Shown: positions 195 through 25,783 of the stretch, piece by piece
Position numbering within the stretch: position 1 is the first letter of the stretch
Layout: each line of letters opens with the position of its first letter
Origin: Candidatus Hodarchaeota archaeon
Lineage (GTDB): Archaea; Asgardarchaeota; Heimdallarchaeia; Hodarchaeales; Hodarchaeaceae
Assembly: GCA_029856365.1 (NCBI GenBank)
Contig: JAHQWW010000045.1
Span: 1-26,243, forward strand
DNA: 26,243 nt
Direction: 5' to 3'
Translations under genes and position numbers: made by a program
Notes under the pieces: generated by a model
Told to the model about the DNA's origin: nothing
What the model saw: only the letters and a program-made list of their open reading frames with translations
The model's database searches: none

Positions 195-322
195 CTGCCA
201 CTAATTGCACAAGGACTATTTTTCTCAAAAAATGTGGAAATTAAGTAGTCCTATCGTCAGATAGCTTCAGGAGTCAGCAGCTTCAATGTGAGAGCATCTG
301 GTCTGATGTCTGTACGCTGTTC
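195..322 (+). repeat. Dispersed repeat, copy 1
   Basis: ctgccactaattgcacaagg...tgtggaaattaagtagtcctatcgtcagatagcttcaggagtcagcagcttca-N16-tctgatgtctgt; aligns by eye with copies at 1932, 5279, 5970, 8136, 13631 and 14422. Confidence 0.9.
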
Positions 323-399
323 TTTGATTTTCGGGAAATTAAACATATCATGAGACTCAGGTGAGGAAAGAAATCGTGACGAACCACACATCTGCGAGT

Positions 400-552
400 A
401 TGAATAAGACAAATCCCGATGAATATTTACTAAAAATCTGTATTATAGGATCACCTGATGAGTTAAAAACGAGAATGACTCGTACATTTGCTGTAGGAAA
501 ATTTACAACACATTATTTACCCACTCTGGGAGTTGACATCACGACTAAACAA
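400..552 (+). pseudogene. N-terminal fragment of a Rab-like small GTPase
   Basis: YLLKICIIG(SPDELKT)...GKFTTHYLPTLGVDITTKQ matches Rab beta1, a degenerate G1 and switch I (Y.PT.GVD). Similarity stops after TTKQ, with no WDxxG or NKxD in the rest of ORF 361..666. Confidence 0.7.
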
Positions 553-789
553 ACCAATTCAAAAAGGGAAGCGACATCAGTACCACAATACCGCCATAAA
601 TCAGTAAAACCACGACAATTTCTTTATTATTTTCAGGCCACTCCTTCTGTATTACCTTTCTCATAGGATACATAATAAATGAGCTGATTCTTCGAGGTAA
701 AGGAAGTAGGAAAGGTGTTCGCTCGCGCCAAGTAAGATATTCTTCAGTATGTTGTCGAATCATCGTATTCGAATTGTAGATTTCAGCCT

Positions 790-1380
790 TTATTCATACG
801 CCCATACACTTATCTCTTTCCATCTTACATTTAATGTTTTAAAAACTCGTATGACTGGGAATGCATTTTTTCTATCACAATATAAAACACTTCTTGCGAT
901 CTTTTTGACATTTAAATCTGTTGTAATCCCTTTAAACGATGAGGTATAGAATTTTTCACGAGTTTTGAAAGAACTCTTTCCACCATAGAGTGCTCTATGT
1001 AATTTCATCTTTGTCTTCTGATCGCACTCTGAGGTATCGTAGACAAGTATCATTTTTGGTTTTAATGATGTTTGTTGTATCATTATAGTAATGGGAGTTC
1101 CAAAAAGAAGAATCCCATCTCCAGCTAACGCATTTTGTAATTCTTCTTCAGCTTTTAATTCATCCAGGCTCATCTGAGTAACTTGCATACCCTCATCTTT
1201 AATGGCTTCAATAAGTTCTTCCTTTTTCTGATCTTTCTGATCATAAATTATGGCCAAATCAATATCGGATTTAATTGTATCGTCCCCTGTTGCTACACTT
1301 CCAAAGAGAATGATTGAAAGAATATTACTCTTGTCTTTAATCTTTCTTGTGAAATTAATTGCTTTATTTAAACTAAACAT
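790..1380 (-). CDS. Minimal nucleotidyltransferase (MNT) antitoxin with C-terminal Cas2/VapD-like extension
   Basis: GSVATGDDTIKSDIDL is a GS-x10-DxD motif; C-terminal MILVYDTS...KLHRALYG...KKIARSVL; overlaps the upstream HEPN gene by 8 nt. Confidence 0.85.
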   Translation of the reverse strand: MFSLNKAINFTRKIKDKSNILSIILFGSVATGDDTIKSDIDLAIIYDQKDQKKEELIEAIKDEGMQVTQMSLDELKAEEELQNALAGDGILLFGTPITIMIQQTSLKPKMILVYDTSECDQKTKMKLHRALYGGKSSFKTREKFYTSSFKGITTDLNVKKIARSVLYCDRKNAFPVIRVFKTLNVRWKEISVWAYE

Positions 1381-1747
1381 TCAATATTCGCCTGCATATT
1401 CTCTTTATTATTTCATACTGCTTTTTTGCGTCTTTTGAGTACTTCCCATTTGTTCCACTGCCATATACATGCTTCGGTCTTAAATTTTCAATTTTCTCAA
1501 TAGCAGTCCATACTTCATCACTATAATTTCTCAATCTTTTCTCATGAACTAACACAGAATACATTTTGTTATGTTTTTCATCCTTATCAATCCTAAGGGT
1601 GTTTAGCTTATGCATCGCTGCGTTGACATAGTGGTTAGTGAGTAACATAATTAACTCGATTATCGCTTCATAATCTGTATCATCGTTTAGTTTCCTTAAA
1701 CTTGCATCAAGATGCTGGATTTTTTCTAGATGGGTTTCAATCTTCAT
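1373..1747 (-). CDS. HEPN-domain protein (UPF0332-like), partner of MNT
   Basis: 124 aa, helical; KHNKM...IENLRPKHVYG resembles the HEPN H...R..xxY pattern; translationally coupled to MNT. Confidence 0.7.
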   Translation of the reverse strand: MKIETHLEKIQHLDASLRKLNDDTDYEAIIELIMLLTNHYVNAAMHKLNTLRIDKDEKHNKMYSVLVHEKRLRNYSDEVWTAIEKIENLRPKHVYGSGTNGKYSKDAKKQYEIIKRICRRILNV

Positions 1748-1758
1748 GTTATTATATA

Positions 1759-1869
1759 TAACAAAATGGTGTTAAAAAGCTTTCTGTTATACTTATTCGA
1801 CATACTTGTATTTATGATGCTTATGTTATAGTTATTTAACAAAACAGTGTTAAAAAGCTTTCTGTTATA
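1759..1869 (-). promoter_or_regulatory. Duplicated BRE/TATA promoter-operator unit of the HEPN-MNT operon
   Basis: 33-nt direct repeat taacaaaa(tg/ca)gtgttaaaaagctttctgttata at 1759-1791 and 1837-1869; minus strand reads GAAAGCTTTTTAA about 25 nt before the HEPN ATG; flanked by TAACA/TGTTA half sites. Confidence 0.65.
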
Positions 1870-1931
1870 TATATTTAACATAACAATGATTTGTGATTTA
1901 TTTCAATAATAATTACCTTTCAATAAGTTTG

Positions 1932-2050
1932 AGTCATAACCAGCATAAAGGCACCCTGTGTGGGAATTTTTCGAAAATCTCTCGTCAGGTGGCTTCAGGA
2001 GTCGGTAGCTTCAGTTGGAGTAGGATCGGTCTGATGTCTGTATGTTGTTC
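1932..2050 (+). repeat. Dispersed repeat, copy 2
   Basis: ...aaaatctctcgtcaggtggcttcaggagtcggtagcttca-N16-tctgatgtctgtatgttgttc. Confidence 0.9.
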
Positions 2051-2227
2051 GAAGATCGAAGGCGTAAGTAAAGTTAGTATTGAATCTCTTGTGACTGAAG
2101 TGAAACCATCTTGTTTGAGCTAGGAAGAAGTCATTACTTCTCTCAAAAACGAAATTTCTAAATGAACGCAGCCGGTGGATTAGACGGTTGCGTATGAGTA
2201 TTCTTCTTTTCATTCCTTATATTATTG
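2050..2227 (+). pseudogene. Duplicated 3' fragment and downstream region of the 8403..8849 gene
   Basis: About 178 nt aligning to 8776-8952 with roughly 20 differences by hand count; encodes KIEGVSKVSIESLVTEVKPS. Confidence 0.9.
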
Positions 2228-2251
2228 TTGAAGCTCTTTTAGGCCTCCTCG

Positions 2252-4951
2252 CTAGTGATTTACCCCCAGATTTTTCGAAAAGAATTTATTATCTTTTTGA
2301 GTTTGCTTTCCTCTTTTTTTCGTTAGTTCATCAAATAATGAGCGTCCTTGATTGTATAGCGCATAATAGAGATCGACAATCCCTATTGTAGGATATGGGT
2401 CTAATCCGAGTTCTTGTGACAGTTGCTGGAGGTACATGAGGTTATCGTCGGGCAGAAAATCATTCAGATCCTTTTTCTCGGCCTGAGTAGTGATGCTAGA
2501 GGCTTGGAGGCTTTGTTGGATCTCTTTGTTTGAGTGCTGTTTTTGTAGCTGGGTGATTTCTAATAGGAGATTATTGACCATCGTGTGTGCCAGATCAAAC
2601 AGGTGCCGAAAACCTTGCCATTCTAATGAATCTATCATCACCAGGTCGTGGTATTCTGCGATTCGCATCCATGGAATCGATGTTACCCGTATATGGCGTA
2701 AAAAATTGACCAATCTCCCGATCAGGGTCTTGACCTTCGAATTGGTATCCGCCCGCTCCTTAGGTGAGGAGGTAATATCATAAAATGATTCTAAACGTTT
2801 TAATTCTTGGTGAGCTTGTCCAACTTCCTCAATTGTCAGTGGAGCGGGCATTGAATTTACAAACGCATATTGTTTGGCGTAATATTCTCGTCCTTTCTCG
2901 GTAATGATCCAGTAGGTGGCTCCCCTATCTATTTCGGTAGTAAATAGTCCTAACGATTTCAATTGGTTTAAGGAGAGTTCCTCCTGTTTTGTACTTTCGA
3001 GGATTCCTATGATTTCACCTGTTTGACATGGCTGGTGGATTAACAATTTCAGGAGTTTCATCAGTATCTCGTATTTCATAGGGGTTAACCCTAGTGTTTC
3101 CGAACCTCGCTGCTTTGTTTTGAGCACTGTGACTGGTTTTAGATCAACAGGTAACCTTTGGTCCAGTTTAAAATGGAACCCAACATTTTGTGGGGCATCT
3201 TCTCGGAACAGCAATCCTTCTCCTTCTATAATCCCTAGCGATTGTTGTTGTTGTTGTTTATAAGCGGAGGATTTTGTTTTCTGGCCTATTTTTAATTCAT
3301 GTCGGGTCATCACGAGCTTTCGATCTTGGGCATTAACCATTTTTAAATAGACGGTATTTCTGATTTCATCAAACGTGTCCATATTCATGGCCAGTTCCTG
3401 TAATTGATGACTGCTTACTATCAAGATATTGTGACTGGTGATCGCGTTACAAGCATCCATTATACTGGAACTGCCAATTTTTCGATCGCGTTTATATCCT
3501 GCTTGTTCGGTGAGAAATTCTGGTGTATGAGTCAGGACTACACATCCCTTTCTCATGCTTTGTGAGAGGTAGTGGAGTAAGAATCCCACGGTGGCTCTAT
3601 GGATCAGTGGGGGTTGTGCCCCAAACTGAAAGAACGTCATTGTATTTTCTCGCACTAGGGTATTACTGTAATGTCCTGTAAATGAGGGATAGTTCACCTC
3701 TGGAAATGATCGAAATTGTTCTAGCACCCCTACGATTGCCTCAATTGCCATCATATCTGCATATATCATATTACCCTCTGAATTTTCCTCCACATCGCTT
3801 TCGTTTCCCCCTCCAAAACTCAGGCTCACATCTCGCAGTGTGAATAAGTGGGTTTTTTTCGCAGTTTTTCTGATTTGGGATTCTAAGGGCACCGCATAAC
3901 GAGCGGTCAGGTATTCTGAGGTGTTTAGCGAACTCAGCAGGAGTTGACTGATCAAATGGGATTTCCACGCTGCTTGGGCTTCTATCTCTTGTTTTTCCCC
4001 ACTTGGTGATCTCGGGACGATCACATCACACAGGTTCAGGTGAATATTGGTGCCTAATTGAAACATTTGTACGGGGAAATCTTTAGGAGGATGAGTCTGA
4101 AAATAGTTAATGATCCCATTGAGTTCGTTATGGGTATCTATCACAAAAATCTGCCTAGTGGTTCCTGTGGTTCTTATGCCGTTGAGCAGTTGTTGCACTA
4201 CGGATATTGTTTCTCTTTTATTGGATCCACAGACTAATACGGTGCCTGTGGTTAATGTGGGAAATCCAACTGGCCGTGCAGGATTTTTTATTCGAGTTCC
4301 TAGTTGGTATGTAACTGGAAGATCAGGGCTAGCGTAATCCTGAAATTGTCTTGAGGGTACTCGATCTAATTGCAGAAACGGTTCTATGAGTTTTGAATGG
4401 AATCCTTTCTGTCCCTTAAAGACAGTGACGGCTTCGGGTACTCTCTTCCTATGGAAATATACTTGACTAATTTGTTCCCCAGTAATTAAGGTGACTTTAA
4501 ATCCTGCTGCTTGGAGGATTGTGTGCATTGTCGATCGGCGTTTAACAAACTTTTTTCGGGCTTTCTGAACGAGTATGGGGAGAATTCTCTCAAAATTGAC
4601 CCAAAACTTCAATGAAACCTCGACGAGGAGGAGTAAGGCAGTGTGGGAGTCATCTGCGTCAGCATATTTGGATTTAGTTGAGCGTGCGGGGAAAATTTCT
4701 CTAATTACTTTCACTCCCTCTTCATCACTCACCAAGGACAGGCTTCGGGCTGCATCCATGAAGTCCTTCCGCGGTTGGAGGGCAAAGATCGAAACCAGTC
4801 CAGCGAGCGGTGCCCAGGGGATATCCATTTTGACATAATCAGGTTTCTGCATGATGAATAAGGTAGATTTATCCTCCAACACTTTCGTTGCGAGTGGCAT
4901 TCTCCTTACTGATCTATCTCGGTACGCGTGGATACCCCAATCAGCTTTCAT
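2252..4951 (-). CDS. Large HerA/VirB4-like P-loop protein with degenerate Walker motifs and C-terminal wHTH-like segment
   Basis: TVLVCGSNKRETIS at the Walker A position (no GKT/S), IFVIDTHNEL (cf. D.kgEy), HLNLCD, CVVLTHTPEFL at the Walker B position (no DE), LIVSSHQ; C-terminal YWIITEKGREY resembles a wHTH wing. Confidence 0.65.
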   Translation of the reverse strand: MKADWGIHAYRDRSVRRMPLATKVLEDKSTLFIMQKPDYVKMDIPWAPLAGLVSIFALQPRKDFMDAARSLSLVSDEEGVKVIREIFPARSTKSKYADADDSHTALLLLVEVSLKFWVNFERILPILVQKARKKFVKRRSTMHTILQAAGFKVTLITGEQISQVYFHRKRVPEAVTVFKGQKGFHSKLIEPFLQLDRVPSRQFQDYASPDLPVTYQLGTRIKNPARPVGFPTLTTGTVLVCGSNKRETISVVQQLLNGIRTTGTTRQIFVIDTHNELNGIINYFQTHPPKDFPVQMFQLGTNIHLNLCDVIVPRSPSGEKQEIEAQAAWKSHLISQLLLSSLNTSEYLTARYAVPLESQIRKTAKKTHLFTLRDVSLSFGGGNESDVEENSEGNMIYADMMAIEAIVGVLEQFRSFPEVNYPSFTGHYSNTLVRENTMTFFQFGAQPPLIHRATVGFLLHYLSQSMRKGCVVLTHTPEFLTEQAGYKRDRKIGSSSIMDACNAITSHNILIVSSHQLQELAMNMDTFDEIRNTVYLKMVNAQDRKLVMTRHELKIGQKTKSSAYKQQQQQSLGIIEGEGLLFREDAPQNVGFHFKLDQRLPVDLKPVTVLKTKQRGSETLGLTPMKYEILMKLLKLLIHQPCQTGEIIGILESTKQEELSLNQLKSLGLFTTEIDRGATYWIITEKGREYYAKQYAFVNSMPAPLTIEEVGQAHQELKRLESFYDITSSPKERADTNSKVKTLIGRLVNFLRHIRVTSIPWMRIAEYHDLVMIDSLEWQGFRHLFDLAHTMVNNLLLEITQLQKQHSNKEIQQSLQASSITTQAEKKDLNDFLPDDNLMYLQQLSQELGLDPYPTIGIVDLYYALYNQGRSLFDELTKKRGKQTQKDNKFFSKNLGVNH

Positions 4952-4985
4952 TAGTGAATCACTCTAGCTATTGATTCTCTCCCCT

Positions 4986-5034
4986 CTTTATATATTCAAA
5001 AACTCCCAATTGGTCTTCATTTTGAATATAAAAG
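4986..5034. promoter_or_regulatory. Divergent TATA boxes within an 11-bp inverted repeat
   Basis: tatattcaaaa (4991-5001) and ttttgaatata (5020-5030) lie between divergent ORFs ending at 4951 (-) and starting at 5062 (+). Confidence 0.5.
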
Positions 5035-5061
5035 GTTTCATGGGGATGATTACTGAGTATT

Positions 5062-5325
5062 ATGGCATCTTTCAAGAATCCAGTAATTCCGAAAATTTTT
5101 CTCCAAGCGCATGAACAGATGATTCAAGGCTTTGCTTTTGACCAGCGAGGTCAACTTTCCAACGCTCGTGATTCTTACATGCAAGCCACTCGTCTTTATG
5201 CCCCTCTTTTTAAGAAATTTCCCCAAGCAGCCTACCCAGACATGTGGCGGAGAGAAGCGACTCTTTGTCTTAAGACATTGGCTGCCACTAATCGCACAAG
5301 GGCTAACTGTGTGGAAATTAAGTAG
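5062..5325 (+). CDS. Small MIT-domain-like protein; C-terminus derived from the dispersed repeat
   Basis: FLQAHEQMIQGFAFDQRGQLSNARDSYMQATRLY fits the MIT helix pattern A....A...D..G....A...Y..A; the last ~15 codons lie inside repeat copy 3. Confidence 0.55.
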   Translation: MASFKNPVIPKIFLQAHEQMIQGFAFDQRGQLSNARDSYMQATRLYAPLFKKFPQAAYPDMWRREATLCLKTLAATNRTRANCVEIK

Positions 5326-5390
5326 TCCTATCGTCAGGTGGCTTCAGGAGTCCCCAGCTTCAAATAGACGAATATTGGTCTGATGTCTGT
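5279..5390 (+). repeat. Dispersed repeat, copy 3
   Basis: ggctgccactaatcgcacaaggg...gtggaaattaagtagtcctatcgtcaggtggcttcaggagtccccagcttca-N16-tctgatgtctgt. Confidence 0.9.
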
Positions 5391-5579
5391 CTGCTATGAT
5401 TCTATTTTTCCACTTAAAATAATATCTCCGACAAAAAATCCAAAATCAATTATTTTTAGCTTAAAATCGCGGAAATTCCACTAAAAACTCGGAGAGATTC
5501 TCGAGATACCCTTTTATTACCATGAGCACCTTAAATTACGAGAAGGGAATTTCGTCGGATATACAAAAGAAGGGAAAAC

Positions 5580-5846
5580 ATGAATCATTGCCAGATATGT
5601 GGAAGGGATAGCTATCTTATCCAGTGTTCTAGCTGTCAAAGATATACTTGCGAGTTCTGTATCACTTTAATTTCTCAAACAGGGTGGGAAAGACTACAAC
5701 ATTGTTTATATTGTGGAACCCGATTTAAGGAATTTTTTAGAAAAAGGAGTAGAGAGAAAATTAAATGTTTGAATTTAGCTTGCAAGGCTTGTTATCCACC
5801 CAAGAAGGAGGCTGTAGAGAAGCGAGAGACACCACAACCTTTGTGA
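5580..5846 (+). CDS. Small Cys-rich zinc-finger protein
   Basis: CQIC, CSSC, CEFC, CLYC, C..CKAC pairs; purine-rich sequence before the ATG. Confidence 0.65.
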   Translation: MNHCQICGRDSYLIQCSSCQRYTCEFCITLISQTGWERLQHCLYCGTRFKEFFRKRSREKIKCLNLACKACYPPKKEAVEKRETPQPL

Positions 5847-5969
5847 GTGAAAAACTTCCTAGGATTCCCTAATACCCCTAATTACGACTAGCGTAACACC
5901 TGGATAGAACTTTCTTATTCCGCTCTTCTATGCTTTCATTGTACTATTAAGATAGTGAAATAAAAATAA

Positions 5970-6067
5970 CTACCTAATCGTACCAGGGTTAATTTTCTCA
6001 AAAAATGTGGAAATTAAGATTTTTCACAAATCTTATCGTCAGGTGGCTTCAGGAGTCGTTTGCTTCA
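5970..6067 (+). repeat. Dispersed repeat, copy 4 (right end truncated near the vapC stop)
   Basis: ctaatcgtaccagggttaattttctcaaaaaatgtggaaattaagatttttcacaaatcttatcgtcaggtggcttcaggagtcgtttgcttca. Confidence 0.9.
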
Positions 6068-6081
6068 GATTAGGTACTTAG

Positions 6082-6504
6082 TTATTTCCAGTCTTCAAGA
6101 AGAATGATTCGCTCATCCTCTAATTTGGAGAATAATCTCTCATCTGCTGTTATGACTTCGATTTGATTTCTTCTCCCAATAGCAATGTAACTCGCATCAT
6201 AAATTGTTATTCCATATTGATAAGCTAAATCAATTGTTAGGTTTGCTAACTTTTCCTCAAAGGGTTCAATTCTGAATTGAAAATCAATTAGGGCTTTAAT
6301 TATCTTTTTCACGTCTTTGCTACCGAATTCTGGTTTGTAACGTAATACATTGGCGATTTCATAAAAGAAGAGTGCTGGGACAATTGGAGTTGCTTCTTTT
6401 TTGAGATAATCTCTGACTTCTAGTGCTTTTTCCGTATTGATTTCGTCAACAAACCATTTGAGTGCAACTGACGCGTCAACAACTAATGTCTGATCTCTCG
6501 CCAT
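6082..6504 (-). CDS. vapC: VapC PIN-domain toxin
   Basis: VVDASVALKWF, YEIANVL, TIYDASYIA, ITADERL: the full PIN acidic set. Confidence 0.93.
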   Translation of the reverse strand: MARDQTLVVDASVALKWFVDEINTEKALEVRDYLKKEATPIVPALFFYEIANVLRYKPEFGSKDVKKIIKALIDFQFRIEPFEEKLANLTIDLAYQYGITIYDASYIAIGRRNQIEVITADERLFSKLEDERIILLEDWK

Positions 6505-6731
6505 GCTCTCAATTCCTCTGTGGTGTTTCCCTTAGCCTTTCTCCGCAACTGATCCATTATTTGTATTGTATGGTCAATAACCTTACTATCCCGATCCATA
6601 ATTCTTTTTTCTTCCTCTTCAACTCTTTTAAGAACTGCTGTTCTCATAACTTCACTCCAATTTATGTGGGATAGCTTTTCAATCCGTTTTTTCAAGTTTT
6701 CTGGGATTTTTGTACTCATTGTTGGCATCAT
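6483..6731 (-). CDS. vapB: VapB antitoxin (RHH/CopG-like)
   Basis: TMSTKIPENLKKRIEKLSHINWSEVMR is a typical archaeal RHH antitoxin start; overlaps vapC. Confidence 0.85.
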   Translation of the reverse strand: MMPTMSTKIPENLKKRIEKLSHINWSEVMRTAVLKRVEEEEKRIMDRDSKVIDHTIQIMDQLRRKAKGNTTEELRAWREIRH

Positions 6732-6781
6732 CTTTCAAGAAAATTAATACCAATCGGTCTTAAAAATATTACCTTTCTTCC

Positions 6782-6802
6782 TGTGGAAATTAAAATTTTT
6801 CA
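6782..6802 (+). repeat. Short partial copy of the dispersed repeat
   Basis: tgtggaaattaaaatttttca vs tgtggaaattaagatttttca at 6006. Confidence 0.55.
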
Positions 6803-6867
6803 AGGAGAGGAATCCTTCAGTGACAGGGCATTCTGTTTAATGTTTCTTGGGAATATTCTACCGTAGT

Positions 6868-6971
6868 ACACTCTTTATTCTTATCTGTTTTTGATGATTG
6901 ATCTCTATGATAGTGCAGTAGTGTAAGTATGGGGTTTTCCGCTGACAGGTTCAGCCACTGATCGTACCTGG
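6868..6971 (+). repeat. Left-arm copy of the dispersed repeat
   Basis: actctttattcttatct...ttgatc...gatag...gacag.tt.agccactgatcgtacc aligns to 13631-13732 and runs into the gccactaatcg motif. Confidence 0.75.
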
Positions 6972-7335
6972 AAATCGTTTTTGAATTAGGTGATTTCATT
7001 AGATGAATCGAGAAAATAATATATGGTGGAATATTTGGAATCATTCCAAAATCCTTGCTTGTTTTGGAGTTTTTTTAAGAATTGTATCCCTTTCTTAATG
7101 AAAATTTATGGGTCTGAGGATATGAGGGTCCAATTGATCATAACAAACATCGAGGATTCGATAAGCAGCATATAATACCAGCCATTTCTTTAGGCGTTAG
7201 TCTTTCATTATCGAATCCTTGATTATTAGCCATTAACAAACCTTCTCAAAAATAACGAGAATCCGTAACTGAAATTTTTGGAGAGAGATTAAGGTTTAAT
7301 TACATATAGTAGTCAGCAAAATGTTTTTTCTCTTT

Positions 7336-7360
7336 AGCTTCAGGAGTCTGCAGCTTCAAT
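7336..7360 (+). repeat. Core of the dispersed repeat forming the 3' end of the PIN gene
   Basis: agcttcaggagtctgcagcttcaat; reverse strand encodes IEAADS-stop. Confidence 0.8.
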
Positions 7361-7759
7361 TAAAACCACGAGTTCATCTGGACTTAAGATATTTTCCTCC
7401 CCTAGCCAAGTAAAATGAGTTTTATTAAATGTGATCAGCTTTGATTTGTGAACCTGAGCGTGAGTTCCTATAATGAAGTCCCTTGCATGATGTCTAAACG
7501 GTAATGCTGAGTACTTTGCATTTTTACTAATATGGAAAATATTTTGATAGGTTAAATCATTTATCTCTGCTCCAAGTGCCTCAATATCCTTTTTAAACAA
7601 TTCTTCGGAGATTCCACGCACATTGTACCAATGAAATGTTTCTAAAGTACTAATCACAGATAGGAATACATCTAACTTATCCTTTGATAATTGTAACCAA
7701 TCAATAAAATCTTGGTCGCGAAAGATATTACTATCCAGACTTATCCGCAGGAATTTCAC
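7340..7759 (-). CDS. PIN-domain (VapC-like) toxin
   Basis: SLDSNIF, SVISTLE, ARDFIIGTHA, LITFNKTHF. Confidence 0.88.
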   Translation of the reverse strand: MKFLRISLDSNIFRDQDFIDWLQLSKDKLDVFLSVISTLETFHWYNVRGISEELFKKDIEALGAEINDLTYQNIFHISKNAKYSALPFRHHARDFIIGTHAQVHKSKLITFNKTHFTWLGEENILSPDELVVLIEAADS

Positions 7760-8033
7760 CCCAATTTGATATCCGCATATCCTCGATTAGAGGTCCTGGT
7801 GCTTTTAGCGCGTTTCGGATCGCTTTTCTCCATTGAAGATTTTTCCGTTTATTCACTGCTCTTTGAATAATCTCACGGGCTTTGGGATTAGGAGAGTACA
7901 ATTTCACACCTATTTCTTTTTCGAATAACCCAACTGCACGTGAAATTATGTCCCCTTGGGTCGTGTCGAGTTCGGCTGCTAATTTCTTGATTTTTTTGCG
8001 AAGTTCATCATCTACGGTCACAGAAGAAGGCAT
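7731..8033 (-). CDS. RHH-type antitoxin
   Basis: SSVTVDDELRKKIKKLAAELDTTQGDIISRAV; overlaps the downstream PIN gene. Confidence 0.8.
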   Translation of the reverse strand: MPSSVTVDDELRKKIKKLAAELDTTQGDIISRAVGLFEKEIGVKLYSPNPKAREIIQRAVNKRKNLQWRKAIRNALKAPGPLIEDMRISNWGEIPADKSG

Positions 8034-8135
8034 TTTTATTCAATCAGTGAATCCATGTATCCATTAATTAATGTTTCTATTTATACAGCAATCCACTAGG
8101 AGACTCAAAAAGAAGTTATCAAGGGGTACCATTTA

Positions 8136-8221
8136 GAAATTCAGTGGAACTATCATCAGTTGGCTTCAGGAGGCACTAGCTTCAATGAGAGAGCATTTGC
8201 TCTGATGTCTGTATCTTGTTC
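8136..8221 (+). repeat. Dispersed repeat, copy 6
   Basis: gaaattcagtggaactatcatcagttggcttcaggaggcactagcttca-N16-tctgatgtctgtatcttgttc. Confidence 0.88.
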
Positions 8222-8402
8222 GTGCGTTATGGAGTACGCTGTATTTCTCTGAGTATGCTATTATCGGAACATAGAAATAGATTATTTAAGACAATATATT
8301 AATTCTTTATTCAAATAAGATTTTTGGAGTTTAAACCTCTATTTTGTTGGTAAAATGCTTCTTTATGGAACCAGTGACATCACAGAATGAGGTTGATGAA
8401 TA

Positions 8403-8849
8403 ATGTCTGCTGTGACCATCGCAAAAATGATTCAGCTTCATGAGCCCTTTGATCTTCTAGGGAAATATTCTGTAGCACTCCCCACTAAGGATAACGTTTA
8501 TGATGGGGTAAAGTATGCTTTGATGATCCTTAATCCCTCAACAAAAACCATTCGAATCATTCCTGCCCGAAGTCCTGAAGTTCTTAAGACTACTATAGTA
8601 ATTGGTGTATTATCTCCTGATTTTTTACAAGAGTTTGGTTTTATTTTAATAAGCAATAAAACAAAGACCCTTTATAGCACAGGGTTGTGTTTCACGCAAG
8701 ATCGTTGCACCTATGAAGTTTACATAGATCGCTCTGACTTAAGAATCTCTCAAGAGCAGTTATCAAATAAACTAACGAAAATTGAAGGCGTAAGTAAAGT
8801 TTGTATTGAATCTCTTGTGACTGAAGTGAAACCATCTCCTTTGAGTTAG
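8403..8849 (+). CDS. Hypothetical protein with ACT-like C-terminal domain
   Basis: Clean 148-aa ORF preceded by gaggttga; LYSTGLC...YEVYID...LTKIEGVSKV has an ACT-like beta/alpha pattern. Confidence 0.7.
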   Translation: MSAVTIAKMIQLHEPFDLLGKYSVALPTKDNVYDGVKYALMILNPSTKTIRIIPARSPEVLKTTIVIGVLSPDFLQEFGFILISNKTKTLYSTGLCFTQDRCTYEVYIDRSDLRISQEQLSNKLTKIEGVSKVCIESLVTEVKPSPLS

Positions 8850-9130
8850 GAAGAAGTTATTACTTCTTTCAAGACGAAATTTCTAAATAAACGCAACCAT
8901 TGGATTAGACGGTTGTGTATGAGCTTTCTTCTCTTCATTCCTTATGTTATTGAAAGAAAAAAGCTTTTTTTACGATAACCTATTAAATTAGTAGATTTTC
9001 ATGAAAAAAATATAATTTCTAAGAAAATTAACAGAAAATTATGTGTTGGATAGAGGAACATACTCTCAGTACGAGAGGAACGGAGTGTCGGCGGCTCTTA
9101 TCTACGGGTTATCTGGAAGAGTACCCCGTA

Positions 9131-9183
9131 TGGCTACCACTAATCGCACCAGGGCTAATTTTCTATAAAATTATGGAAATTAG
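9131..9183 (+). repeat. Dispersed repeat, copy 7 (middle segment only)
   Basis: tggctaccactaatcgcaccagggctaattttctataaaattatggaaattag. Confidence 0.85.
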
Positions 9184-9678
9184 AAAGAATATTTCTCATC
9201 TGAATAATGTTTGGATACGCGAATATCTCTAGTTCTATTAAGGATGGAAAATAGGGCATAACTAGTAATAAGTATCAAGAATTTCAATTGGATGTTTTTT
9301 CCACAACCGAGGCAATGTATGAGATCAAATCCTTTACTTCCTCCAATGCTCTTGATATCATCACTCATGGCCTTGAGTGGTTGAAACAGGGCTATTATCC
9401 AAGATTTAATCCTGCGTGGCCCAAAGCTATCTATAAATGGGGGCCTCTCCAAGTAGGATTCTAAAAATTGTTATATTTTTTCTTAACTGGCTTCTAATCT
9501 TCTTATTTCGTGTTTAACCGAGGTTCTTAGTCTTTGGGTGTTTATATGGATATCATGAAATAGACTTTGAATGACATTCAGTAAATTTCAATTCTTATTA
9601 AACTCAATTAATATCCTATTGAGAAAATTTAGGGTGTTCATAAAGGAGGTACTAAATAGAGGGACGGTGAAAAGCGAA

Positions 9679-9714
9679 ATGCCTCCTCAAAGTGGCTCTC
9701 CTCCTTGCCAATAA
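9679..9714 (+). CDS. Candidate small peptide MPPQSGSPPCQ (frame is open back to ATG 9571, giving 47 aa)
   Basis: GC-rich 36-nt ORF in AT-rich spacer; GGTGA SD-like site 8 nt upstream; U-rich tract at 9725-9750; counterpart at 21613. Confidence 0.5.
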   Translation: MPPQSGSPPCQ

Positions 9715-9752
9715 TTTAAAATATAAATTCTCCCCTTTTTCTTTTTTTCTTA

Positions 9753-11306
9753 TCAGAACAGATTGGGCTGTATCCACATGAGATTATTTTGATCAAACCA
9801 TTCGAATTCCATTCCATGAGGAGGATGTGTTGGTAAAATTGGATATAGTTTCCATTTAAGCTCATCTTTAATCCATTGGATTAACTGTGAATTCAACCTT
9901 GTCCATATTTGGATAGATGAATCAGTAATATAGTATTCACAATATGGTATTGTATTTAGGAATGTTTTTAACTGAAGTTTTGGAATTCGGGGAAGTTTAA
10001 TCCAGTAAGAATCTAATGAAAATTCATAGATAAGTCGATATGGCACAAATCCAATGTGAACTACTTGATTGTAATGTAACTGTCTAAGTAGACCGATTTC
10101 AGAACGGGAAAGTGTGAATGTGTTTTGTGTACAAGCTGTTTGAATAGGTAACGATGAAATTGAGAATTCTTTAGAAAATTTACAATATAGTCTGATGATT
10201 TGAGTGGGTAGGGGGTGTTCCTTAAAATCCCAGTTAGGATTATAGGATGGTGTTGTAAATGACAATGAATATGGTTGAAACTTCTTTCGTGGATGTTTCA
10301 CCTTTATTTGACTTGTTAATCGAGTCATTTCCTTTTGACTTAATTGCGACCACCCAGTGCCTACTATATAGTTTTCAAAAGAGACATTTCGATGAATAGT
10401 GTATATCTTTGTTAAATCTATAACGTTTATATCTCCTTCTGTTTCACGATGGTATAGATATGCTTTTAATTGGTTAATTGTATTTGTAGGGACAACTAAT
10501 GTCCCAATATAGGCATTTGGATGATCTCTAACATAGTAAACTGCGCTTAGACCTAAGACAGTGTAATCTCGATTATGAAAATCTATTATATCTTTTAATG
10601 AGTTTCCTACATTTAGTTCAAAATGAAAAAACAAACGATCCAATCCAAAGGCGGGACTATGAAAACGTAAAAACCATCGACCATCAATGAGGCGAAAAAA
10701 TCGGGAAAGCTCAGTTGTTGGTTTCACATTATGGGGAAAAGGTACTTGGCTGATAATGGCTGTTCTTATCTTTCGTTGATTTAGTGCATCTATACCTCCT
10801 TCTTTGATGAATGAGTAAAGAGTTATCAAGATCTGAAATTGGTGTTCTGAAAGGGGATAGAGGAGTTTATTGCTTTCATACTGCAATTGCTCCCATGCAA
10901 GATTCGATAATGGAATATTTTCTCGTATAAGTCCATAAACTCCAGGAGTACTAGAGCTCCCTCGAAGATGTTTTGCAATGTATTCATAAAATCGATTTGC
11001 GTGAAATTTTGAGACGTTTAACAACAGATAAGCATTTGAAAAATAGTTGTAAGTAAACCATAGGAAAGCCGTCTGGAGGTATTGATCAGTTCCCAAAATT
11101 CTATTATTGTACTCTTCAAAGCGCTTTGAGAGCTTATTTCTTTGGTAGTCAGCCTCTTCGTAATATTGAAGGACTGAGAGGAATTCCGTTAGTAAAAGTT
11201 GATCAGATGGTGGATACTCCGCAATATGATCTGGAAGCTGTTCCATAATAGTTTTGATAAAACGCTTAAAACTCTCTCGACCTGGCCGAACCACCTCACT
11301 GCTCAC
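9753..11306 (-). CDS. Uncharacterised ~515-aa protein, probable tandem wHTH/Lrp-AsnC-like regulator (paralogue 1)
   Basis: Shares YPPSDQ, EFLSVLQ, AWEQLQY, PAFGL..LFFHF.L, DIIDFH, EFSLD.YWI.LP with 21768..23306; two LS..(E/Q)..(I/L)L..L HTH-start-like segments. Confidence 0.75.
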   Translation of the reverse strand: MSSEVVRPGRESFKRFIKTIMEQLPDHIAEYPPSDQLLLTEFLSVLQYYEEADYQRNKLSKRFEEYNNRILGTDQYLQTAFLWFTYNYFSNAYLLLNVSKFHANRFYEYIAKHLRGSSSTPGVYGLIRENIPLSNLAWEQLQYESNKLLYPLSEHQFQILITLYSFIKEGGIDALNQRKIRTAIISQVPFPHNVKPTTELSRFFRLIDGRWFLRFHSPAFGLDRLFFHFELNVGNSLKDIIDFHNRDYTVLGLSAVYYVRDHPNAYIGTLVVPTNTINQLKAYLYHRETEGDINVIDLTKIYTIHRNVSFENYIVGTGWSQLSQKEMTRLTSQIKVKHPRKKFQPYSLSFTTPSYNPNWDFKEHPLPTQIIRLYCKFSKEFSISSLPIQTACTQNTFTLSRSEIGLLRQLHYNQVVHIGFVPYRLIYEFSLDSYWIKLPRIPKLQLKTFLNTIPYCEYYITDSSIQIWTRLNSQLIQWIKDELKWKLYPILPTHPPHGMEFEWFDQNNLMWIQPNLF

Positions 11307-11630
11307 CTCTAAAAAGGAGAGAACTTGAAAATTTAATCTTCTATTTCATTTCCAACAGACAAAAAATAATCTCATAAGACTTAAAAGAGTTTGTAAGCTT
11401 ATATAGCTCTTATAAAGTATTTTTTTTAAATAACCTAATAAGGTATAATCCATATGATTACTCCAGATGAATCTTTTATATTAGAAAAATTCATTATAAA
11501 GATAGGCTTCCCCATTTAAACTAAGAGCGAGATGGACTCACTTTTTCTGGCATGATAGGCCACGATGACTATTGTAGGTTTATGTTTGCAAGTAAACAGG
11601 TTTCTTTTCATGTGAAACCACTCAACATTA

Positions 11631-12116
11631 GTGATCAAAATGGTAGAAGACGATTTAACCTGCTCCGACCCGATAAGAGAAGAAAGAGACCAGAAACTGA
11701 CTAAACAGAAAAAATGGCCCATACTTGCTTGTATTTTTATATTGATAGTAGCCTCTCTTTTCATAATTTATCGAATAATCCCACAGGAAACAGTTGTTTT
11801 TGAAAAAGATATTTCTATCAATCTTAAAACATTTTCCTATTTAGAATATTCATCTAATTTTATTTCATTCAAGGCGGGGCAGAAATTTACAATAAAAATA
11901 ACAAAATATTCCTCTAATGAAGAGACAACAGTGAAAATTATTCTCTATAAGAACCTTGAGAATATTTGGACTAGTTCTTTTAGTGGAAACACAGAACTAA
12001 GTGGAGATCTAAAAGAAGATAGTGAGTACTACAAATTTTCCTTTAGTGTATATCAAAATTTTAATTTACCTGGTCCTGAAGTCAGTTTTCATGTTCAAAT
12101 TCTTAGGTATGATTGA
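11631..12116 (+). CDS. Membrane-anchored hypothetical protein
   Basis: One N-terminal TM helix (WPILACIFILIVASLFIIY) followed by a beta-rich domain. Confidence 0.7.
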   Translation: MIKMVEDDLTCSDPIREERDQKLTKQKKWPILACIFILIVASLFIIYRIIPQETVVFEKDISINLKTFSYLEYSSNFISFKAGQKFTIKITKYSSNEETTVKIILYKNLENIWTSSFSGNTELSGDLKEDSEYYKFSFSVYQNFNLPGPEVSFHVQILRYD

Positions 12117-12152
12117 TCAATTGACGAGTTTTGTACCCTAGGCTAACTGTTA

Positions 12153-12209
12153 AATCCATGTTAATGAACACTCTTTCTTTATATATCATTAACATGGATT
12201 CATGTTAAT
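12153..12209 (+). promoter_or_regulatory. Inverted repeats and TATA/operator-like unit
   Basis: Perfect 15-bp IR 12153-12167/12186-12200; ctttatatat-c-ATTAAC-N10-GTTAAT at 12177-12209. Confidence 0.55.
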
Positions 12210-12219
12210 AATATGTGGA

Positions 12220-13509
12220 TTATTTCGTTGTTTCATGTCTTTTTTTTGCAGCATCTCCTCGCGCCGTGAGAGAATAATAAGCTCGTTTCCCACTTCCTAC
12301 TCTGGTGACCCAGTTTTTGTTCATCATTCCTTTGAGAACACGAGTTATTGAAGGTGGTTTTTTATCTAATCTTTCAGCAGCGTCTGTTGGAGTTGTTCTT
12401 CCTTTGCTAAGGAGTGTCAATACTTGATATTCTAGTAATGTTGGGTGTTGAATTTCTGTTTCTTCTTCATAAACGTGCTCAGGTTTTACTGTTTTGGAAT
12501 TTAGTTCAATTGCTCTTTGGATAGCTTCATATGTTCTTTCTAGCATGAGATACGTGTTTGGAACAGACACATTAAGGATGGTCTTAATTGTTTCGGGGGG
12601 AAGTATTTCTTGAGTTGTTTTGATGACATTTTTTTCGTTCTCTTGGATTTGTGAGATACCTAAGAAGGCTCTTGAATGAATAATTTTTTCTGCATCCTTT
12701 TGTGTTGTTACTCCTGGATATTTTTCTATAGTTGATAGTCTACGTACTGAAGAAGCTACAGTTTCCTTAATTGATTCGCCAAATGTGTATGTGAGAGAAA
12801 GGATTCCCCGTTTACCTTGAAACCATGATTGATTTCCGTCGAAGAAATCTGATAGCACAGTATCAGAGTTTACTTTGTCTAACTCATCGATGACAAAGAT
12901 TAGAGAAGTTTCAGTTTCCTCTAAGCGATTAATGAGAATGTCTGCCACGTTTCTGGTGTCAATTGTTGTTGAGGTTAGAATTGTTTCAATATCTGTTTGT
13001 TTTAATCGAGTTACGAGCCATTTTATTCCCTTTTCAGCGATGTCTGAGGCATAAGCCAGTGGTGGAAAAACAAGGCTAGAGGCTTCTGTGATCTTCCGTC
13101 CGATCCATGGGGCGTATTTTTGTGTCCCTTTCTTGAGTTTACTCTCTTTTTTCTTGAATTCAGCGACTTCCAAAATTCCAGAGATAACTGATCTATAAAA
13201 AGCATCCTCTAGTTCCTTAATATTTGACGCTGCCTTAGCTCCCTTTACCGTTATTGTTACAGGTATAATCTTTCTATCTTTTGAAGTTGATAACGCACGC
13301 AATAATACACCTTGCATTGCTGTAGTTTTTCCTACACCTCTTACACCGTATATAGAGATTTTACGATCCTGGTTTACTATTTTGGATGCATTTTGGGTAG
13401 CAAAGTCTCCTATATCGTGGTATAGCAAGTCAAATAACTCAGCTTCATAGGATAGTAGTTCTCTTGTCATATACTGTTGAGCAGCTCTGAGAGTTCTACT
13501 GTTTACCAT
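12220..13509 (-). CDS. P-loop ATPase with C-terminal winged-helix (MarR-like) domain
   Basis: Walker A GVRGVGKT, Walker B IFVIDELDK; C-terminal TPTDAAERLDKKPPSITRVLKGM...YYSLTARG. Confidence 0.85.
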   Translation of the reverse strand: MVNSRTLRAAQQYMTRELLSYEAELFDLLYHDIGDFATQNASKIVNQDRKISIYGVRGVGKTTAMQGVLLRALSTSKDRKIIPVTITVKGAKAASNIKELEDAFYRSVISGILEVAEFKKKESKLKKGTQKYAPWIGRKITEASSLVFPPLAYASDIAEKGIKWLVTRLKQTDIETILTSTTIDTRNVADILINRLEETETSLIFVIDELDKVNSDTVLSDFFDGNQSWFQGKRGILSLTYTFGESIKETVASSVRRLSTIEKYPGVTTQKDAEKIIHSRAFLGISQIQENEKNVIKTTQEILPPETIKTILNVSVPNTYLMLERTYEAIQRAIELNSKTVKPEHVYEEETEIQHPTLLEYQVLTLLSKGRTTPTDAAERLDKKPPSITRVLKGMMNKNWVTRVGSGKRAYYSLTARGDAAKKRHETTK

Positions 13510-13510
13510 G

Positions 13511-13543
13511 ATTAACCTTGTTTTTGGTTAATAATATATAAAG
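13511..13543 (-). promoter_or_regulatory. TATA box plus palindromic operator of the ATPase-wHTH gene
   Basis: Minus strand ctttatatat-t-ATTAAC-N10-GTTAAT-c-ATG, leaderless spacing. Confidence 0.6.
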
Positions 13544-13630
13544 ATTAAGTCATATTTAACACAGTATAAATCTTCTATTAAATATAAAAAATGAAATTTC
13601 AGCAAAAATATGAGGTATTGAGTTCTAGGA

Positions 13631-13839
13631 TACTCTTTATTCTTATCTATCTTTAAGAATTGATCCTGTTGATAGAACAGCCGTGTTCGAATAGATATTT
13701 TGGCCGACAGCTTTAGTCATTAATCGAACAAGGCTTTTTTTTAAAAAAAAACTCGAAACTGAGATTTTTCAGAAAATCTTTTGTCAGTGGGCTTTAGGAG
13801 TCAGCAGCTTCAATGAGAAGGTATAGGTTTGATATCTGT
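13631..13839 (+). repeat. Dispersed repeat, copy 8 (longest, diverged)
   Basis: Contains the left arm shared with 6868, agtcattaatcgaacaagg, and gtcagtgggctttaggagtcagcagcttca-N15-tttgatatctgt. Confidence 0.85.
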
Positions 13840-13898
13840 TTAATTTATTGGTCACCTTTTCTGTTACTTTTGTAGCTTCCAAACAAATAACTTTCGTG

Positions 13899-14273
13899 TT
13901 ACAAGACAGCTTTGGCCTTTTTTAGGTCATCTACTCCAATAACTATTCTATTATTTTCAGCTAGGTAAATTAAATTAATATTTATATCTTCAAGGGCTAA
14001 TTTTCGGAACAACCTTCCACCTGAACCAGGTTTTTTCACTATTTCTTTGATTTCAATAACAAGTACTTCTCGTTCTTCTTTAATCTTAAACCCAGCTCGT
14101 TTAAGTACATTGTAGGCTTTTCCAGAATCTTCTACCAAAATGTGTATTAAGTCTTCTCCTTCACATGCAGCTCCGCAAAGGCCTTCTATATTAATATTAG
14201 CCTTCCCTAGAGTTTCTCCTAAATCAGCAAGAGTACCAGGTCTGTCTTCTAATATAATAGTAATATCCTTCAT
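13899..14273 (-). CDS. ACT domain-containing protein (tandem ACT)
   Basis: LEDRPGTLADLGETLGKANINI and KKPGSGGRLFRKLALEDININLIY. Confidence 0.9.
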   Translation of the reverse strand: MKDITIILEDRPGTLADLGETLGKANINIEGLCGAACEGEDLIHILVEDSGKAYNVLKRAGFKIKEEREVLVIEIKEIVKKPGSGGRLFRKLALEDININLIYLAENNRIVIGVDDLKKAKAVL

Positions 14274-14421
14274 TTCAACAACCTCGTATAACTTAACAAA
14301 GATTATTCGTAGTATATTCTTCTTGGAATATAAGGTTATCAGAGTTTTAGTTTTTAATAAGTATGTTCCATTATATCTAACGCTTCGATTTTCCGACTAA
14401 ATCGTGATTCACGATCTCCTG

Positions 14422-14499
14422 TTAATCAGCACCAAGGCTAAATTTCTAAAAAAACTGTGGAAATTTAGCGGAACTATCGTCAGTTGGCTTAAGGAGTCA
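14422..14499 (+). repeat. Dispersed repeat, copy 9
   Basis: ttaatcagcaccaaggctaaatttctaaaaaaactgtggaaatttagcggaactatcgtcagttggcttaaggagtca. Confidence 0.85.
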
Positions 14500-14549
14500 A
14501 CATATATAATATGAATAAATGCTTGATTCTCCCAAGACCAATAGCTTCC

Positions 14550-15140
14550 TCAAGTTTTTTTTGTTAATGGTTCGGGAATTACATTATTTGGGATGTACCC
14601 GAGGGTGGCGTGATACACAGCACACGTCGCCACGACAATGGAAGTGTTCACCATTGAGGTCTCATAGTACCACAGATTCTGTGTGATATCTTTAAATAAA
14701 TAATCTTTAATGGTGTGATACACCTCTTCTCGCATCTTCATCGGGATAAGATCCGTCTTATGTTGTAGAATGAACGTAGTCGCCATCGGACTATATTTTG
14801 TGATATTCTCCAAGCATAAGTTCAGGTACATTCTGTTTTGGGACATATCTTTGATCTCAACAGAATCTATTACATAAACCAATGTATCCATATCACCAAA
14901 GATCACTTTTGATATGTCATTTTTAGAACCTACAAATCGATCTAGAAATGCTGTTGTCCCTCCTAAATCCCAAAATTCTATTTTTATATTATTAATAACC
15001 TGTGTATGTCTTTCATACTCTATTGTTGCATGAAAATCTATATCTGTCATATCTGTTATTTCTTTAAATAACCATTTGCGGATCATGGTCTTTCCTGATC
15101 GTGTTAATCCAAACAATACAATTTTGTTGGTTTGTGTCAA
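14550..15140 (-). CDS. Ras-superfamily small GTPase (Arf/Rag-like)
   Basis: G1 GLTRSGKT, G2 AT, G3 WDLGG, G4 HKTD, G5 ETS; TTG start. Confidence 0.88.
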   Translation of the reverse strand: MTQTNKIVLFGLTRSGKTMIRKWLFKEITDMTDIDFHATIEYERHTQVINNIKIEFWDLGGTTAFLDRFVGSKNDISKVIFGDMDTLVYVIDSVEIKDMSQNRMYLNLCLENITKYSPMATTFILQHKTDLIPMKMREEVYHTIKDYLFKDITQNLWYYETSMVNTSIVVATCAVYHATLGYIPNNVIPEPLTKKT

Positions 15141-25657: not shown

Positions 25658-25783
25658 TGGGCCTGGGGGGATTTGAACCCACGACCATCCGGTTTCTCAA
25701 GCTCATTTGGGCAATATGAGCCGGACGCTCTAACCATTTCAGAGAGTGAAAGTGTTGAACACCCTAAACTGAGCTACAGGCCC
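25658..25783 (-). tRNA. tRNA with CAU anticodon, probably tRNA-Ile2, with two BHB introns
   Basis: Acceptor GGGCCUG/CAGGCCC with A73; anticodon arm UCCGG-CUCAUAA-CCGGA; introns 25766-25737 and 25714-25694; GGGCC start is typical of archaeal Ile rather than Met tRNAs. Confidence 0.85.

Follow-up and report, generated by a model that had tools for sequence, protein, structure and literature searches.

Repeat copies and gene modules in the window

The stretch of DNA analyzed here, hereafter the window, is the 26,243-nt contig JAHQWW010000045.1 of a Candidatus Hodarchaeota archaeon (contig C41 of a 4.24-Mb assembly in 204 contigs, labeled G000), the first part of which carries a dispersed repeat, R, that separates small gene modules and that is, with near certainty, the 3' end of the large subunit (LSU, 23S) ribosomal RNA gene joined to the trailer of the 23S processing stem. 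A repeat search and an nhmmer profile of 174 positions, built from the window copies, identified 11 copies of R, all on the + strand; each of the 11 positions listed in a first-pass annotation, which had been made from the letters of the sequence, was recovered by the profile in the same orientation, and the consensus quoted there is correct. Copies 1 (183-343, profile positions 22-172), 2 (1911-2067, profile 14-168), 3 (5251-5412, profile 8-164) and 8 (8116-8237, profile 46-167) all match the profile, copy 1 comprising the last ~25 nt of the LSU rRNA (about 195-225) and a full trailer, and copy 3 being LSU-derived from about position 5280. Copy 4 (5967-6077, profile 31-124) and copy 11 (14401-14515, profile 19-121), the last of the array, are truncated at the 3' end, and copy 5 (6780-6845, profile 60-140) is degenerate and matches weakly (E 0.0065). 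Copy 6 (6864-6993, profile match 6911-6993) retains the 5' part only, with ~86 nt of LSU 3' sequence, and copy 7 (7335-7364, profile 91-120) is a core fragment overlapping the 3' end of the open reading frame (ORF) at 7340-7759. Copy 9 (9131-9184) holds the LSU 3' end with the first part of the trailer and is fused to an LSU fragment at 9043-9123, and copy 10 (13626-13875, profile match 13674-13875) carries an LSU-derived 5' extension of ~110 nt. The absence of copies after 14.5 kb, noted in the first-pass annotation, also holds with the nhmmer filters switched off, since no credible match was obtained at 14.5-26.2 kb (nhmmer --max, E<=10).

The modules delimited by these copies encode a heterogeneous set of proteins on both strands. 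Directly after copy 1, a truncated Ras/Roc-like small GTPase gene of family F1 (361-666, +) forms with R a unit that is colinear with a relative's, and the next module (790-1747, -) encodes an MNT-type nucleotidyltransferase, with a Pfam match at 790-1380, and a 124-aa partner (1373-1747) without one. Three 39-nt tandem units, among which a 37-nt inverted pair is also formed, occupy positions 1753-1882, between this module and copy 2. The 899-aa protein encoded at 2252-4951 (-) has no Pfam match; its homologue in the relative G011 (64% identical) also lies between repeats and on the strand opposite to R, with other neighbors. An N-terminal zinc-ribbon fragment of an F1-type GTPase gene (5580-5846, +) is ended by the next copy of R, after which a PIN toxin (6082-6504) and a small RHH-like partner (6483-6731), the latter 90% identical in G017, make up the module at 6082-6731 (-). 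A second pair, with weak Pfam matches to PIN and RHH, spans 7340-8033 (-). Family F5 is represented by a 148-aa protein (8403-8849, +) without Pfam match but with 84% nucleotide identity to an R-flanked module of the relative G007, and family F3 by a 517-aa protein (9753-11306, -), likewise without Pfam match. Pfam identifies the product at 12220-13509 (-) as a P-loop ATPase with a C-terminal MarR-type wHTH domain, that at 13899-14273 (-) as an ACT-domain protein and that of the first gene past the last R (14550-15140, -) as a Gtr1/RagA-like GTPase. The gene labels of the first-pass annotation are accordingly supported by Pfam for the MNT, PIN, weak PIN/RHH, ATPase-wHTH, ACT and Gtr1/RagA GTPase genes, while its HEPN (1373-1747), HerA-like plus MIT (2252-4951) and ACT-like (8403-8849) assignments find no support there.

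Several smaller features accompany these genes. A 180-nt duplicate, 88-92% identical, occurs at 2050-2227 and 8776-8952; the latter is the 3' end and tail of the ORF at 8403-8849, and the former is an orphan after copy 2, a remnant which indicates that a deletion removed the rest of the gene. The F3 protein has a 41% identical paralogue at 21768-23306, outside the window's array, and its family (512-534 aa, no Pfam match) recurs in or beside the arrays of G009 and G017. At 25658-25783 (-), a 126-nt tRNA match (Rfam, 46.6 bits) is evidently intron-bearing and was not reported by ARAGORN in bacterial mode.

Relation of the repeat to the 3' end of the LSU rRNA gene

An all-versus-all comparison of arrays revealed that some R copies reach ~300 nt further in the 5' direction, with 82-91% identity between species. 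Alignment identifies this extension as LSU rRNA sequence from the 3' end, with the sarcin-ricin loop motif AGUACGAGAGGAAC, and the Rfam model LSU_rRNA_archaea scores the long copies at 161-227 bits. In the window's own genome, C184:257-566 corresponds to model positions 2721-2973 (226.6 bits) and overlaps the R copy at C184:135-320; positions 46367-46669 and 27759-28068 of G007:C8 likewise match the model. Since the Rfam gene end places the LSU 3' end at about R profile position 60, an ordinary R comprises the final ~25 nt of the LSU and then ~110 nt from beyond the gene. The LSU part usually amounts to these ~25 nt, but reaches ~110 or ~330 nt in some copies and is shorter in others. Within the window, BLAST against native LSU ends assigns 195-225, 5280-5310 and 9132-9158 to the last ~25 nt of the gene and 6900-6955 and 13662-13716 to sequence from further inside it, and the fragment at 9043-9123 (+) contains the sarcin-ricin region, 87.5% identical to the G007 LSU over 72 nt (LSU model positions 2741-2825 in Rfam, with a weak E of 0.12).

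The downstream part of R was compared with the 5' leader of the 23S rRNA in G007, where the 16S gene and LSU positions 1-1452 lie on contig C9. A stretch of 110 nt preceding the LSU 5' end forms 64 intermolecular base pairs with the trailer on contig C8 (-60.7 kcal/mol), and leader and trailer make a stronger duplex than leader and shuffled trailers (-68.7 vs -50.2 +/- 5.1); the pairing was computed in this one genome. Because the trailer pairs with the 23S 5' leader, the conserved blocks of R are read as the 3' strand of the pre-23S processing stem. This pairing accounts for the conserved blocks better than intramolecular structure, for which RNAalifold predicts a weak helix in the + strand (-4.5 kcal/mol) and none in the - strand; Rfam at the gathering threshold reports nothing in the window besides the intron-bearing tRNA, and permissive scans of two R copies yielded no useful match. 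R as a coding sequence was rejected, given that two GTPase ORFs, which belong to tandem units of G007 described below, merely run into R and stop at its TGA, and that the C-termini of the GTPase family are not conserved. The first-pass annotation had taken R for a free-standing recombination site, in place of which a duplicated LSU 3' end with its trailer is found. It had also named a match to the 3' end of a multicopy gene as evidence against a cassette-like array; such a match exists, in the LSU tail, and the cassette-like array is nonetheless still supported. With R identified as the LSU tail, the reading shifts from an integron-like platform to serial recombination at the tail of an rRNA gene, in which the target is duplicated.

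At the native locus, the R trailer is thus the 3' strand of a leader-trailer helix like that of the archaeal pre-rRNA processing stem, with its bulge-helix-bulge. Unlike the native stem, however, the array offers ~30 extra trailers for a single leader, without a nearby partner strand. The extra copies could be kept for an RNA role, such as leader pairing in read-through transcripts, processing or terminator signals, or 5' leaders of cargo genes. This would fit the nature of R as one strand of a processing stem, its position 40-170 nt upstream of many same-strand genes, the conservation of its 3' part and of the spacer above that of the gene body in two R-gene pairs, and the restriction of the weak predicted helix to the + strand. 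We regard such a role as improbable, since half of the cargo lies on the opposite strand, the copies flanking shared modules are ~70% identical as compared to 91-93% for the cargo, which amounts to roughly neutral divergence, many copies are truncated at varied points, and only one match among 106 copies is inverted, that is, leader-sense.

Genome-wide, the profile returned 32 R matches restricted to seven contigs (C41, C49, C184, C83, C44, C20 and C95), which represent 90 kb of the 4.24 Mb, or 2.1% of the DNA, and within each of which the orientation is uniform. Such clustering greatly exceeds what chance would give. Several of these contigs start with an R copy, and C49:1-273 and C184:1-273 are identical, the two contigs then forking within a copy, which indicates that the assembly broke at the repeats. 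The fork reflects either strain heterogeneity or two array positions sharing one downstream module, and the R-bearing contigs probably derive from a single array or a small number of them. On the 17-kb contig C95, a lone 3' part of R (6681-6776, -; profile 85-170), with no other copy on the contig, immediately precedes a Ras-like GTPase gene (5967-6536). A BLAST search of 41 related genomes with one copy as query detected R in 18 of the 21 genomes of the same genus and in 0 of the 19 from other genera of the order and class. Contig G007:C8 holds 30 copies in 54.7 kb, 29 of them on one strand, and arrays of 7-16 copies lie at a contig end in each of G011:C3, G017:C126 and G010:C12. When 12 contigs or regions from five genomes are taken together, 105 of 106 copies follow the local majority orientation (binomial p about 1e-26), and the copies are spaced at a median of 1.2 kb (interquartile range 0.8-2.6 kb); a metagenome scan added nine short contigs on which the copies are also co-oriented. 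The profile scan of the genome and its relatives suggested in the first-pass annotation therefore yields clustered, co-oriented copies, in agreement with its preference for a cassette-like array over a scattered miniature inverted-repeat transposable element (MITE).

The same data bear on the idea that R is a small non-autonomous element, MITE-like or akin to a short interspersed nuclear element, which arose from the rRNA tail and inserted itself into intergenic sites of an existing island. The copies are indeed intergenic, and many share their 3' end and vary in 5' extent, as 5'-truncated retrocopies do. The nearly uniform orientation and the confinement of all copies to 2% of the genome nevertheless make this origin very improbable, as do the lack of terminal inverted repeats in the R copies (repeat search), the many copies truncated instead at the 3' end, the failure to find any orthologous site pair with and without R, and the absence of a reverse transcriptase or transposase nearby. 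The copies vary so much at their ends that they delimit no insertion boundaries at which target-site duplications would be expected.

In both relatives with an LSU gene assembled beside an array, the array adjoins the gene and runs in its direction. At the end of G007:C8, LSU positions 2545-2987 lead into the native trailer, after which come 29 further R copies over 54 kb, oriented like the LSU gene, and G004:C44 carries LSU positions 1019-2987, followed by the native trailer R (2050-2235) and a second R (5813-5975). The window and the arrays of G010, G011 and G017 reach a contig end on the side where the gene is expected. G009 (CP070695.1), deposited as a chromosome, has neither a 16S gene nor an LSU 5' half in the copy analyzed, and hence gives no information on the rRNA linkage of its three arrays; it is probably a joined metagenome-assembled genome (MAG), unfit as a closed reference. 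Contig G001:C57 carries a full LSU and no R, the LSU being only 77% identical in the tested stretch, and may be mis-binned. Regarding the rRNA genes themselves, the 16S gene of G007 (L031 on C9, 1695-3919) spans 2225 nt as compared to the 1478 positions of the model, and its LSU 3' part (L022 on C8, 13937-14756) spans 820 nt for 443 positions; in both, the extra length is probably due to rRNA introns or insertions.

Repeat junctions, module exchange and GTPase units

The 5' junctions of R recur at particular LSU positions. In about 20 copies the junction lies 21-30 nt ahead of the LSU end and in 6-8 copies, from five genomes, 322-334 nt ahead of it, the adjoining upstream DNA being different each time; smaller groups start 5-15 nt short of the end or exactly at it, with edges that are fuzzy because they stem from local alignment. 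An insertion-like arrangement is found in G004, where a 3.6 kb module is bracketed by two R copies with 99% identity over the trailer core, which are alike over ~215 nt in total, from ~25 nt before the LSU end. Upstream of these shared ~215 nt, the second copy has only an older, diverged LSU-like stretch. The module, which encodes a Schlafen/AlbA_2-domain protein and two proteins without assignment, and no integrase, looks like a single recent insertion.

Modules are also shared between species in different contexts. A PIN-containing module at G007:C8 43551-44427 is 91% identical to G017:C126 4640-5520, with unrelated neighbors on both sides; the flanking R copies share truncations but are only ~70% identical, and the similarity ends inside or at these copies. 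A two-gene module is 83% identical between G009 (14016-14774) and G011 (32218-32975), again among unrelated neighbors and with the homology breaking off at R, and several further modules are common to different species between repeats with unrelated neighbors. The comparison of module order among relatives, proposed in the first-pass annotation as a way to detect shuffling, thus reveals different orders with breakpoints at the repeats. Sequencing run X7 contains a mangrove relative that is ~95% identical, and its contigs cover most of the window modules, with depth falling almost to zero at 7338-8004, where copies 7 and 8 enclose the PIN/RHH module, and at 9339-12006, which holds the module of the 517-aa protein. 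One of these contigs spans 2090-5271 and departs from the window sequence at the repeat edge on either side, and another joins 6057 to 13878. These data are Logan contigs, in which most joints have short sides inside R, and, being contigs and not reads, they demonstrate alternative arrangements rather than excision. Among R copies, the nearest neighbor lies in another genome in 29 of 56 cases, and mean identity is 0.75 within genomes vs 0.69 between genomes.

The cargo of the arrays is oriented almost evenly with respect to R, since 78 ORFs share its strand and 83 do not, so that R cannot be a general promoter nor the array an operon. The Pfam tally, which covers 103 ORFs from four array contigs and is limited to 25 of 63 families, has the small Ras-like GTPase as the commonest cargo (12 of the 103 ORFs match Pfam Ras) and includes no integrase. 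Family F1 has 19 members. The array GTPase genes usually lie 40-170 nt downstream of R on the same strand, most of their products have a degenerate P-loop that lacks the GxxxxGK[ST] motif, and some carry an N-terminal zinc ribbon with four cysteine pairs (window 5580-5846 and a 272-aa form in G011); on these sequence features, the Ras-like proteins of the arrays may be pseudo-GTPases. Other cargo includes PIN/RHH pairs, an MNT-type nucleotidyltransferase, an MFS transporter, a NikR-CbiMNQO operon, beta-helix surface proteins, methyltransferases, HNH endonucleases and assorted enzymes.

The GTPase genes point to an alternative origin, in which the tail of the rRNA operon and a downstream GTPase gene were duplicated in tandem as a segment, and unrelated genes were gained and lost later without any cassette mobility. 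Such a process needs no recombinase. At 40.8-42.8 kb of G007:C8, three R-GTPase units follow each other with a period of ~590 nt, and R with its GTPase gene is colinear between species (window 195-551 with G007:C8 53025-52639; window 5328-5803 with G011), the Ras family being the commonest cargo. These tandem units, together with the broken family members after copies 1 and 3 of the window, imply that local tandem duplication contributes to the arrays. As the general origin of the arrays, however, we consider it rather unlikely: most modules are mutually unrelated and randomly oriented with respect to R, identical modules occur among different neighbors in different species, the G004 insert places non-GTPase genes between copies of R that are 99% identical, and recurrent 5' junctions at fixed LSU positions are unlike random breakpoints.

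Proposed recombination at the 23S tail and comparison with known systems

Taken together, these observations lead us to regard the window as, on balance, probably the distal portion of an accretion or cassette island that is anchored to the rRNA gene and grew through successive recombination events at the 23S tail. DNA units bearing an R-like segment would recombine with the tail of the rRNA gene or with an existing R, and each event would leave one more co-oriented copy. Recombination between copies would in turn delete, move and exchange modules within and between species of the genus, and GTPase genes with R as their upstream leader would additionally multiply by local tandem duplication. 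The core of R would stay conserved through the continued origin of new copies from the native trailer, which is under selection, old copies being left to decay. Integration or recombination at R is itself inferred as the generating process. Given that no unit encodes a known recombinase, the enzyme would act in trans, or reside on unsampled plasmids or viruses, or the process would rely on host homologous recombination. The fixed junctions of R favor a site-specific enzyme supplied in trans, whereas homologous recombination is favored by homology that is long and variable, by the mosaic nature of the copies and by the lack of a recombinase or of an inverted-repeat core site.

A number of results weigh against this account. 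No integrase, serine recombinase or TnpB was detected by Pfam in the window, on C49 or in the array flanks, the PF00589, PF07282 and PF00239 matches of five genomes all lie far from the arrays, and R contains no evident inverted-repeat core site for a recombinase. The LSU gene is assembled beside an array in only two genomes, the window's own assembly contains neither an LSU 5' half nor a 16S gene, and C49 has 5 kb without R on the side expected to face the gene. In G007, identity to the native trailer is flat with distance from the LSU (Spearman rho -0.04), and without an age gradient simple accretion of the newest unit next to the gene is insufficient, meaning that insertion does not occur solely beside the gene or that modules were later reshuffled. 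The tandem R-GTPase units reveal a share of plain duplication, and no extrachromosomal carrier of R was found, a scan of viral contigs yielding 0 matches to the R core.

The lack of a recombinase in view, reported in the first-pass annotation for the window, therefore extends to the surroundings of all arrays in the five genomes, the PF00589 tyrosine recombinases of which (G000, G007, G009, G011 and G017) lie on other contigs or at a distance from the arrays. An integron-type array, with divergent attC sites and an IntI encoded elsewhere, would nevertheless conform to this pattern: the R arrays share with integron arrays and with clusters of attC sites lacking integron integrases (CALINs) their co-oriented sites, a short cargo of one to three genes, rich in toxin-antitoxin pairs, and the want of a neighboring integrase, and integrase-less attC clusters have been reported in Asgard MAGs (PMC9668308). 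Single-strand DNA folds of four full R copies, computed for both strands, nonetheless gave z values of -0.97 to +1.3 relative to shuffles; R thus folds no better than shuffled sequence and forms no attC-like hairpin, and on this basis it was rejected as an attC site. The arrays also lack R''/R' boxes, in keeping with the observation of the first-pass annotation that attC boxes are missing, as well as IntI and attI, their cargo is not co-oriented, the site is a piece of an rRNA gene, and the tyrosine recombinases are remote. We hence deem an integron most improbable.

The proposed recombination at the 23S tail has closer parallels in islands anchored to other genes, which, by analogy, the R island would resemble in its operation, whereas it resembles integron arrays in its looks. 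Islands formed by tandem integration at the 3' ends of tRNA or transfer-messenger RNA (tmRNA) genes include cases of archaeal gene capture and the islands of Prochlorococcus with repeated tRNA 3' ends. Like these, the R arrays consist of co-oriented direct repeats of the 3' end of a stable RNA gene, lie directly after the intact gene and carry accessory, toxin-antitoxin and defense-like cargo in many units that lack an integrase. Unlike them, the R arrays use as target the LSU rRNA gene with its processing-stem trailer, have a long repeat block (~135 to ~440 nt) in up to 30 copies per 55 kb, and display no integrase in any unit of the five genomes. Of the four features by which accretion at a stable RNA gene can be recognized, three were found, namely a copy of the 3' end, adjacency to the gene and near-identical flanking repeats, and an integrase was not.

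Composite islands of the staphylococcal cassette chromosome mec (SCCmec) type form at the 3' end of rlmH/orfX, and in streptococci integrase-less elements accrete beside integrative and conjugative elements (ICEs). The R arrays share with both the serial accretion at the 3' end of one gene, the direct repeats containing that end, and units without a recombinase of their own, which in those systems are mobilized in trans; the SCCmec and ICE systems differ in having identified serine or tyrosine recombinases and short core repeats, and the host of R is an archaeon. Modules that depend on the host Xer recombinase are known as well, such as integrative mobile elements exploiting Xer (IMEX) and the pdif modules of Acinetobacter. 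These too are small, recombinase-less modules bounded by repeated sites, and their movement by a host enzyme is a feature of Xer systems; R lacks dif-like inverted arms. Every genome examined here has a conserved Xer-like recombinase.

A literature search found no report of an LSU rRNA 3' end anchoring a multi-cassette island. More tentatively, and with greater doubt than approval, it may be proposed that the arrays constitute a previously undescribed gene-capture platform of Heimdall-group Asgard archaea, in which the LSU tail and its processing stem serve as attachment site, recombinase-less cassettes are exchanged between species, and the expansion of small Ras-like GTPases finds a nursery. 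The enzyme of such a platform could be a new site-specific recombinase, as suggested by the junctions ~25 and ~330 nt before the LSU end, or short-homology recombination could take its place.

The analysis explains a conspicuous genus-wide repeat as the mark of a hotspot, anchored to the rRNA gene, at which genes are gained, lost and exchanged. In practical terms, R arrays break assemblies beside rRNA operons and can be mistaken for integrons or for novel non-coding RNAs. The hosts of the hotspot are archaea near the eukaryotic stem. If the mechanism is confirmed, the LSU tail would be a new kind of integration target, served by a recombinase still missing from view or by homology-driven exchange of cassettes between species, and the arrays would provide a concrete locus for the multiplication and shuffling of the small GTPase paralogues that are a hallmark of Asgard genomes.

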